A stretch of 2,740 nt of DNA. Source: Escherichia phage ECO95 1-6-1. Within the stretch, counting starts at the first letter, position 1. Each line of letters starts with the position of its first letter. Below, piece after piece: positions 1,772 to 2,045 of the stretch. The notes under the pieces are model-generated. The model saw nothing but the letters and a program-made list of their open reading frames with translations, did not search any database and was not told where the DNA came from. Location: the sequence record OR845398.1; one strand, 5' to 3'. The translations under genes were made by a program, and so were the position numbers.

Positions 1772-1926
1772 TGTTTTAGTGCCGTTGCCCCAGGCACTGT
1801 CGAATGAGGATAAAAAGTATATACCCTAAATAATTCGAGGTGCAGAAAGGCGGCAAGTGGGTATCGGGGTTATAAGCGCTGTTACTGAGCCTAAACTCAG
1901 CATAAAAAATCCGCATAATCCCAACG

Positions 1927-1955
1927 TTGACAGTCCAGGCCACAACTTTTATTTA
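1927..1955 (+). promoter_or_regulatory. candidate sigma70 promoter for lysC (-35 TTGACA, 17-bp spacer, -10 TATTTA), within an AT-rich tract
   Basis: A perfect consensus -35 hexamer TTGACA sits at 1927-1932. After a 17-bp spacer, TATTTA at 1950-1955 matches the -10 consensus at 3 of 6; a better-matching TATAAA at 1954-1959 would need a 21-bp spacer. Predicted TSS is near 1962-1964, about 85 nt upstream of the lysC ATG. Motif-based only. Confidence 0.35.
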
Positions 1956-2035
1956 TAAATACGTTACTTGCATTTGCGCCTGCACCGGTTTCTGTTCTGC
2001 CCTTGTGCCATGGTCGCGTTTTTCATTTCCTGACA

Positions 2036-2040
2036 CGAGG
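2036..2040 (+). promoter_or_regulatory. Shine-Dalgarno sequence of lysC (CGAGG)
   Basis: GAGG at 2037-2040 is followed by a 5-nt spacer (ttgat) and the ATG at 2046. Confidence 0.7.
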
Positions 2041-2045
2041 TTGAT

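Follow-up and report, generated by a model that had tools for sequence, protein, structure and literature searches.

The lysC gene, which encodes aspartokinase III, is preceded in Escherichia coli by a lysine riboswitch that has become a textbook multi-acting riboswitch and a proposed antibacterial target; Caron et al. are said to have reported in 2012 that it controls both translation and RNase E decay. At the level of the enzyme, allosteric inhibition is the established control of aspartokinase III. Control of translation, of RNase E decay and of Rho termination by the E. coli lysC riboswitch has since been described (Ghosh et al., 2024, PMC10946432), and E. coli lysC is also under promoter-associated DNA elements (PMC10946432). 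One activator of E. coli lysC is ArgP, which acts unless it is lysine-bound (PMC12925634; PMC6254735). The ArgP (IciA) promoters of E. coli (lysC, asd, dapB, dapD, lysP, argO) are activated by ArgP and lysine-repressible (Marbaniang and Gowrishankar, 2011, as cited in PMC12925634 and PMC6254735). Here we describe the lysC leader in a stretch of 2,740 nucleotides (sequence record OR845398.1), called the window below and analyzed over its full length. The lysC features discussed all lie on its plus strand.

The locus resembles the E. coli lysC leader in having the same gene, a divergent pgi, a TTGACA-17-TATTTA promoter and the first ~12 and last ~71 nt of the leader. Also, it keeps the helix CCUUGUG/CACGAGG that sequesters the Shine-Dalgarno (SD) sequence, the stretch equivalent to the RNase E/rut region, the SD sequence itself and the AUG. 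Unlike E. coli, the window has neither the five-helix aptamer nor the P1/anti-P1 part of the platform (~+14 to +236 in E. coli). We hold, with good confidence, that the aptamer was deleted (~229 of the 306 leader nt), that this state is fixed across genera, that lysine sensing by the RNA was probably lost, which would leave control at the promoter and the enzyme, and that the allele probably has a single origin followed by exchange.

Riboswitch Search and Leader Length

Judged by its identities, the window is the wild-type Salmonella enterica pgi-lysC divergent region. The 231 residues of the LysC N-terminus match S. enterica subsp. enterica entries at 100%, and the window DNA is 94.8% identical to S. 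diarizonae, 92.2% to S. arizonae and ~88% to every E. coli genome. The pgi-lysC intergenic region (IGR) spans 1702..2045. Its length of 344 bp, given by a previous sequence-only reading, is correct according to the open reading frame coordinates and compares with 524 bp in E. coli; the spacer of an independent S. enterica assembly (L004) is likewise 344 bp. The same reading had called the IGR AT-rich, and its GC content is indeed 44% vs 53–58% in the flanking coding DNA.

All 4,227 Rfam families were searched with cmscan at E ≤ 10, the gathering score of the lysine riboswitch family (RF00168) being 30 bits. This search, which the sequence-only reading had proposed for the IGR, gave no match to RF00168 at E ≤ 10 on either strand, neither in the whole window nor in 1702-2110 alone with laxer filters. 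As positive controls, E. coli scored 99.5 bits, Klebsiella 63–91, Cronobacter 98.5 and Pantoea 85.4. Matches to mir-308, mir-600 and DicF were dismissed (E > 1, far under the gathering score). The core motifs of the E. coli aptamer are AGAGGCGC, GGAGGAG, CUGAGGGG and GCCGAGG, and neither GGAG, TGAGGG, GCCGAAG, GCCGAGG nor AGAGG occurs on the plus strand of 1702-2045. The absence of GGAG, TGAGGG and GCCGAAG had been noted before; for the last motif the absence holds here, but the wording does not fit E. coli, which reads GCCGAGG.

In the published E. coli numbering, the start codon AUG ends at G309 (PMC10946432), which makes this leader 306 nt long, close to the ~300 nt given in the sequence-only reading; its riboswitch is annotated by RefSeq. 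The E. coli +1 lies at position 2120 of our E. coli locus L003, the G of GTACTACC, and the homologous window base is A1961. With its start set by this homology, the lysC leader of the window (1961..2045) would measure ~85 nt, the value also proposed earlier. It lies 5′ of lysC and contains a platform able to sequester the SD sequence.

The Deletion and Its Junction

Homology to E. coli breaks off ~12 nt into the leader and picks up at window position 1975, which corresponds to L003:2357 and to E. coli +238. From there it runs through the AUG, with 51 of the 72 aligned positions identical. This agrees with the likeness to the 3′ expression platform and ribosome-binding site that had been noted before, as the last ~71 nt match E. 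coli +238..+306. Because both flanks of the gap are colinear with E. coli, the aptamer was deleted rather than diverged. The alignment with orthologues that had been suggested thus shows ~229 nt of the E. coli leader to be absent from the window, and what was lost comprises the whole lysine aptamer and the 5′ part of the expression platform.

The E. coli leader has just two copies of the hexamer CTGCGC, at +8 and +237. A deletion between both copies would remove 229 nt and leave a predicted leader of 77 nt. Most riboswitch-less lineages have 131 nt between the promoter box and the ATG, exactly 229 nt less than the 360 nt of E. coli. In the window, the junction TTGCATTTGCGCCT (1968..1981) joins the 5′ leader stub to the 3′ expression platform with a (CT)GCGC microhomology, and the CTGCGC repeat at the break is a signature of slippage or microhomology deletion. 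Salmonella and C. freundii carry 6 extra nt (TTGCAT) at the junction. The leaders of E. marmotae and of a clade-III-type Escherichia lineage read ...ACGGTCTGCGCCTGCACC..., which matched the predicted product through the kept CTGCGCC repeat.

Distribution among Genera

The same junction was found in S. enterica, S. arizonae, S. diarizonae, S. bongori, C. freundii, an Enterobacter hormaechei-type genome (assigned via LysC, 99% identical) and Leclercia. At the gathering score, RF00168 had no match in S. arizonae/diarizonae, S. enterica L004, S. bongori, C. freundii, Enterobacter or Leclercia, and likewise none at E ≤ 1 where this threshold was applied among those riboswitch-less genomes. Nine further metagenomic lineages and three Escherichia-type contigs also gave no RF00168 match.

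A scan of metagenomes with a class-specific motif yielded 77 loci. The distance from promoter to ATG was 129–138 nt in 72 of them and could not be measured in two. In the remaining three, which are Citrobacter-like (L041, L089, L094), it was 252–260 nt because an ERIC-like repeat is inserted right after the −10 hexamer. We considered these three loci as intermediates with a partial aptamer and rejected them as such, given the ERIC-like insertion and the missing RF00168 match. Genus assignment of the metagenomic representatives was based on exact protein identity and led to Citrobacter koseri, Citrobacter spp., several Enterobacter species, Leclercia and Escherichia marmotae, for the last of which Pgi and LysC were both exact. 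The cryptic clade-III-type Escherichia lineage has a LysC 100% identical to that of Escherichia sp. TW09231. Metagenomic Salmonella contigs with the 344-bp IGR have lysC sequences 99.3–99.6% identical.

The aptamer was present at ≥95% identity in each of the 5,426 complete E. coli genomes, and the short lysC leader allele in none of them. Another candidate for a cryptic Escherichia clade (L007) was rejected as an error-rich E. coli-like assembly, its leader being 100% that of E. coli. Pantoea, Cronobacter, Klebsiella and E. coli all have the riboswitch, which is therefore considered ancestral. The sequence-only reading had proposed that either this lineage or this isolate has an allele lacking the aptamer. 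The loss of the aptamer and its assignment to a lineage hold, whereas a change of the isolate does not, since the allele is fixed in all Salmonella lineages examined. Fixation in whole lineages therefore speaks against the mutation of one isolate. Also, the proposed relevance to resistance to S-(2-aminoethyl)-L-cysteine (AEC) or to lysine overproduction is unsupported; the allele is not of a resistance type and is the fixed wild-type state in several genera.

Klebsiella, as observed in K. pneumoniae (L014:1737-2500) and L015, keeps the riboswitch within an IGR of 755–764 bp. There, ~100 extra nt separate the promoter block from the aptamer, and an insertion of ~80 nt lies within the loop of the SD-sequestering hairpin.

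The Retained Leader and Its Predicted Hairpins

The leftover leader is not decaying, because its conservation across genera exceeds that of the adjacent lysC coding sequence. The last 62 leader nt of the window are 96.8% identical to those of C. koseri and 88–90% identical to those of C. freundii, an Enterobacter-like lineage and E. marmotae; for the first 690 nt of lysC, identity to these four is just 79–81%. The retained SD-sequestering helix reads CCUUGUG.CA.GG / CC.UG.CACGAGG. All 13 reference sequences contain TGTGCC and TGACACGAGGT unchanged, whether the aptamer is present or absent, and 12 of them have CCTGACACGAGGT, the exception being S. arizonae with CTTGACACGAGGT. Among the 28 distinct riboswitch-less leaders, GCGCCTGCACC, which lies outside the search pattern, is invariant, and the mid-leader CCGGUUUCUGUUCUGCC is kept across several genera. 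The U/C-rich segment at 1986..2000 matches the RNase E Site1/rut region of E. coli (+250..) and is less C-rich. Site1 itself lies at +250-253 in E. coli (PMC10946432), or L003:2369-2372, and the rut-like stretch counts C11/G8 in 32 nt in the window vs C17/G6 in 34 nt in E. coli. In C. koseri-type loci (L084/L030), LysC has 453 amino acids and a divergent N-terminus that is 4 residues longer (MTTAVSPLVVAK... vs MTEIVVSK...); over its last 62 nt the leader stays 96.8% like that of Salmonella despite this divergence.

All riboswitch-less leaders have several derived states in common: CCTGCACC in place of CC-CACCC, GGTCGC in place of GGCTGAA, and the TTCATTCC loop. The first two are missing from every riboswitch-bearing genus, including the outgroup Pantoea. 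GGTCGC (2012-2017) is confined to riboswitch-less alleles, the riboswitch-bearing taxa having GGCTGAA. The two derived motifs complement each other, GCGCC.GCAC (1976-1985) being paired with GUGC...GG.CGC (2005-2017) in what we call hairpin B. The window thus differs from E. coli in having GGUCGC for GGCUGAA and CCUGCACC for CC-CACCC, which gives a hairpin that E. coli cannot form.

The 5′ arm of hairpin B, GCGCCUGCAC (1976..1985), is invariant in the 28 leaders and pairs with 2005-2017 in the minimum free energy (MFE) fold of the leader; its 3′ arm, GUGCCAUGGUCGC (2005-2017), includes GGTCGC. Hairpin A is the old SD-sequestering hairpin. Its 5′ arm, CCUUGUGCCAUGG (2001..2013), overlaps the 3′ arm of hairpin B, and its 3′ arm, CCUGACACGAGG (2029..2040), holds the SD sequence GAGG at 2037-2040. 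Hairpins A and B are mutually exclusive, and each is formable in all 28 distinct leaders. Hairpin B is the MFE fold in all six riboswitch-less lineages (−9.5 to −14.6 kcal/mol) and is unformable in the homologous segments of E. coli and Klebsiella (−5.0 and −3.3 kcal/mol). Hairpin A has −11.3 kcal/mol and is paired in 100% of cells across the 28 leaders, with only one-sided changes.

According to the fold models, hairpin B would be complete before the SD sequence is transcribed and would take up the 5′ arm of hairpin A. The most economical reading of hairpin B may be that of a built-in anti-sequester with which translation stays on. The lysC mRNA would no longer sense lysine. A further structure, "Fold C", formed by the mid-leader with lysC codons 2–5, was rejected because it was no better than other open reading frame windows (p = 0.08–0.46). 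Its energies were −11 to −17 kcal/mol in riboswitch-less taxa vs −0.5 to −6 in riboswitch-bearing taxa. It is also disfavored by C. koseri and the Escherichia clades, in which the mid-leader is kept while codons 2–5 differ.

Promoter and Probable Remaining Lysine Control

The lysC −35 hexamer TTGACA (1927..1932) had been noted by the sequence-only reading and is the only copy in the IGR; it is invariant and aligned with the E. coli promoter. It is followed, after a 17-bp spacer, by the −10 hexamer TATTTA (1950..1955), which lies inside an invariant TTTATTTATA block common to E. coli and was missed by a consensus scanner because just 3 of its 6 positions match TATAAT. Aligned in this way, the lysC promoter of the window is a homologue of the sigma-70 promoter mapped in E. 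coli. The upstream region at 1871..1926 is conserved and includes the dyad ATAAAAAATCCGCAT (ATrAAAAATCCGCAT) of T-N11-A type at 1902-1916, centered near −52. This dyad was found in all genera that have the promoter block. Salmonella, Citrobacter, Enterobacter, Leclercia, E. coli and Klebsiella all carry AAAAATCCGCAT without change; in E. marmotae and the clade-III type its place is taken by AATAATCCGCAT, which differs by one substitution.

Like the ArgP-controlled lysC of E. coli, the window keeps the promoter with a T-N11-A-type dyad directly upstream of the −35 hexamer. By analogy with the E. coli literature, this dyad is a candidate ArgP site. Control of aspartokinase III by lysine would then be left to the boxes upstream of the promoter and to allosteric feedback on the enzyme. 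We thus infer, by the same analogy, that lysine repression persists at transcription and via allosteric inhibition.

Proposed Origin and Exchange of the Short Leader

Neighbor-joining (NJ) trees of pgi or lysC do not group the riboswitch-less taxa into one clade. The clade-III-type Escherichia lineage is 95.3% identical to E. coli in pgi and 87.5% in lysC, and only 72% identical in the leader; its leader is 84–94% identical to Citrobacter, Salmonella and Enterobacter-like leaders. These identities point to the replacement of a segment of at most ~300 bp by recombination in one Escherichia lineage, and the discordance between the distribution of the allele and the flanking genes suggests horizontal allele replacement. 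We propose that the riboswitch-less leader may have arisen once and then passed between lineages by homologous recombination. The short alleles are probably not independent, because they have too many derived states in common.

Several points weigh against parts of this reading. Hairpins A and B showed no covariation in the 28 leaders, their helices being invariant or changed on one side only; covariation tests are uninformative because the helices do not vary, and this invariance is in part imposed by the motif search pattern. Also, fold energies were not significantly better than those of shuffled sequences in most cases. The two hairpins are nearly isoenergetic, and addition of the first codons favors A in Salmonella and C. 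freundii; a leader locked in the ON state is therefore not established. The leader length of 85 nt is an estimate by homology, and the supplements of S. Typhimurium differential RNA sequencing papers hold no entries for lysC, STM4220 or aspartokinase. The ArgP site is a conserved T-N11-A-type motif only, binding in Salmonella being putative. Finally, the NJ trees are crude and based on short flanking segments, and a sample without E. albertii and E. fergusonii is compatible with transfer in either direction.

How the remainder of the leader should be understood leaves room for other explanations. The short leader could still be a switch, toggled between A and B by a protein, a small RNA, temperature or the kinetics of transcription and translation, so that regulation was rewired and not abolished. 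We regard this as unlikely. The two mutually exclusive, nearly isoenergetic hairpins are formable in every one of the 28 leaders, the leader is conserved above the adjacent coding DNA and beyond the needs of a permissive 5′ untranslated region, and the mid-leader CCGGUUUCUGUUCUGCC is kept in several genera, all of which would suit a switch. However, the fold models offer it neither covariation nor significant z-scores nor a candidate trans factor, and the conservation is equally explicable by the context of the ribosome-binding site, by mRNA stability or by the initially transcribed region. Tentatively, and with low confidence, the ~80-nt leader may be seen as a selectively maintained two-hairpin module that replaced the riboswitch once and moved between genera, including into or out of Escherichia. 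If this were true, the presence or absence of the lysC riboswitch would be a horizontally exchanged regulatory polymorphism. As for the origin, several independent CTGCGC-mediated deletions followed by convergent compensatory substitutions seem quite improbable to us. The 6-nt direct repeat around the aptamer is in principle a recurrent hotspot, and the riboswitch-less taxa are non-monophyletic in both NJ trees; but the common derived states (CCTGCACC, GGTCGC and the TTCATTCC loop) are too many for convergence, and the clade-III-type leader is 93.5% identical to that of an Enterobacter-like lineage vs 72% to that of E. coli.

That the aptamer is still there in a highly divergent or miniature form, hidden in the leader or upstream, had been left as an option by the sequence-only reading. 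Its only points in favor are the location 5′ of lysC and the strength with which the leader is conserved. An 85-nt leader is too short for a five-helix aptamer of ~180 nt and leaves only ~40 nt of room ahead of the SD hairpin; a hidden divergent aptamer is therefore untenable. The negative covariance-model searches (E ≤ 10, both strands), the missing core motifs and the colinear flanks also speak against it, and we judge it very improbable. An assembly artefact or private mutation, for example in an AEC-resistant or lysine-overproducing isolate, is scarcely credible. It is true that mutations conferring AEC resistance on E. coli and B. subtilis lie in the lysC leader (PMC6254735; PMC9495366), but the 344-bp IGR is also found in S. 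enterica L004 and in metagenomic Salmonella contigs, and the junction recurs in three other Salmonella lineages and at least five other genera. Thus, deletion of the aptamer with a single origin and subsequent exchange remains the reading that we prefer.

Neighboring Genes and Repeat Elements

On the minus strand, the pgi coding sequence for glucose-6-phosphate isomerase occupies 52..1701 in the list of open reading frames, with ~88–91% identity to annotated E. coli pgi. The 5′ part of lysC (first 695 nt; PF00696) starts with the ATG at 2046, runs to 2740 and exceeds the window. The pgi-proximal segment of the IGR (1702..1796, minus strand), on the side of the pgi promoter and 5′ untranslated region, is kept in E. 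coli and contains the sole part of the IGR that BLAST could align to E. coli (query 1-85, 89.5%). A promoter scan gave a pgi-side promoter-like site at 1771..1742 on the minus strand. Between pgi and the variable region, an inverted repeat TTGTGACTGG...CCAGTCACAG at 1727-1760 flanks the −10-like TACAAT of this site. It is kept in Salmonella, Citrobacter and E. coli and partly in Klebsiella; in Enterobacter its 3′ arm differs. From its sequence and position, the repeat could be a pgi operator or a hairpin of the 5′ untranslated region. The Rfam mir-308 match in this region was judged spurious.

The variable AT-rich stretch contains, at 1821..1866, an internally deleted remnant of an ERIC/IRU-like repeat, which is putatively ERIC (consensus of ~127 bp with a central inverted repeat). 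Full-length copies of the ERIC/IRU-like element occupy the same site in S. bongori (L005, ~2140-2320) and in the C. koseri-type locus L084, and the element is absent at this site in S. arizonae and C. freundii. The ERIC core was found at nine sites in eight loci with 4–9 substitutions each, the sites being unrelated. When the S. bongori copy was compared with E. coli genomes by BLAST, only partial matches were obtained, in 24 genomes. In some Citrobacter-like genomes, the repeat right after the lysC −10 hexamer would place ~120 nt into or ahead of the leader. Cronobacter (L017:2073-2194) has an ERIC-like repeat just upstream of the riboswitch, with a weak match to Rfam V_AS5 (45 bits).

Positions 1-22 of the window (minus strand) belong to a REP-type palindromic element: GGCCGGATAAGGCGTTTACGCC matches naRNA4 of Rfam over its initial 22 positions (24.7 bits) and is cut by the window edge. 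In E. coli-type and Escherichia-clade loci, pgi is followed downstream by complete naRNA4 copies (79–82 bits). The small RNA STnc430 (RF02053) was found directly downstream of pgi, outside the window, in all Salmonella loci with 158–170 bits (L004:259-420, L002:2043-2204 and L001:3840-4000, among others); it is weaker in E. coli, Enterobacter and the Escherichia clades (70–93 bits). Also, the 90%-identity cluster of LysC contains NCBI entries of 308–309 amino acids named "zeta toxin family protein [Escherichia coli]" (P0128, P0129, P0131, P0134), which are probably truncated, misnamed aspartokinase III.

Comparison with Known Systems

A survey from 2017 states that the lysine riboswitch system is well conserved in Enterobacteriales, and its table of lysine-riboswitch genomes includes E. 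coli, Klebsiella, Shimwellia and others, with no Salmonella or Citrobacter (PMC5584792). Unlike the present analysis, this survey does not describe the loss, the junction or the presence of the short allele inside Escherichia (PMC5584792). Our literature search returned no paper stating the loss of the Salmonella lysC riboswitch; Rodionov et al. (2003) may have noted it. The absence is thus implicit in databases, while the junction, the broad occurrence of the allele, also within Escherichia, the strong conservation of the remnant and the class-specific hairpin appear undescribed.

Several consequences follow for work on lysC. Findings on lysC regulation in E. coli are not transferable to Salmonella, and compounds aimed at the lysine riboswitch would have no target in Salmonella, Citrobacter, the Enterobacter cloacae group, Leclercia and the two non-coli Escherichia lineages. 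Closely related species that differ by a clean riboswitch deletion constitute a natural experiment on the re-balancing of the pathway and on the role of the leader remainder. The mismatch between leader alleles and flanking genes suggests that small regulatory segments can be swapped between genera.

The mosaic phylogenetic distribution of the short leader resembles that reported in surveys of riboswitch loss (Sun et al., 2013, PMC3766115; Mukherjee et al., 2017, PMC5584792). Another parallel is provided by E. coli and B. subtilis mutants whose altered lysC leader makes them constitutive or AEC-resistant (Patte et al., 1998; Blount et al., 2007; as cited in PMC6254735 and PMC9495366). As in these mutants, the function of the riboswitch is lost, and repression by lysine at the RNA level would be expected to be lost with it. 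Unlike them, which as presented in the citing papers are lab-selected point or small lesions in an otherwise intact riboswitch, the window carries a natural and complete deletion that extends over whole genera and is accompanied by conserved secondary changes.

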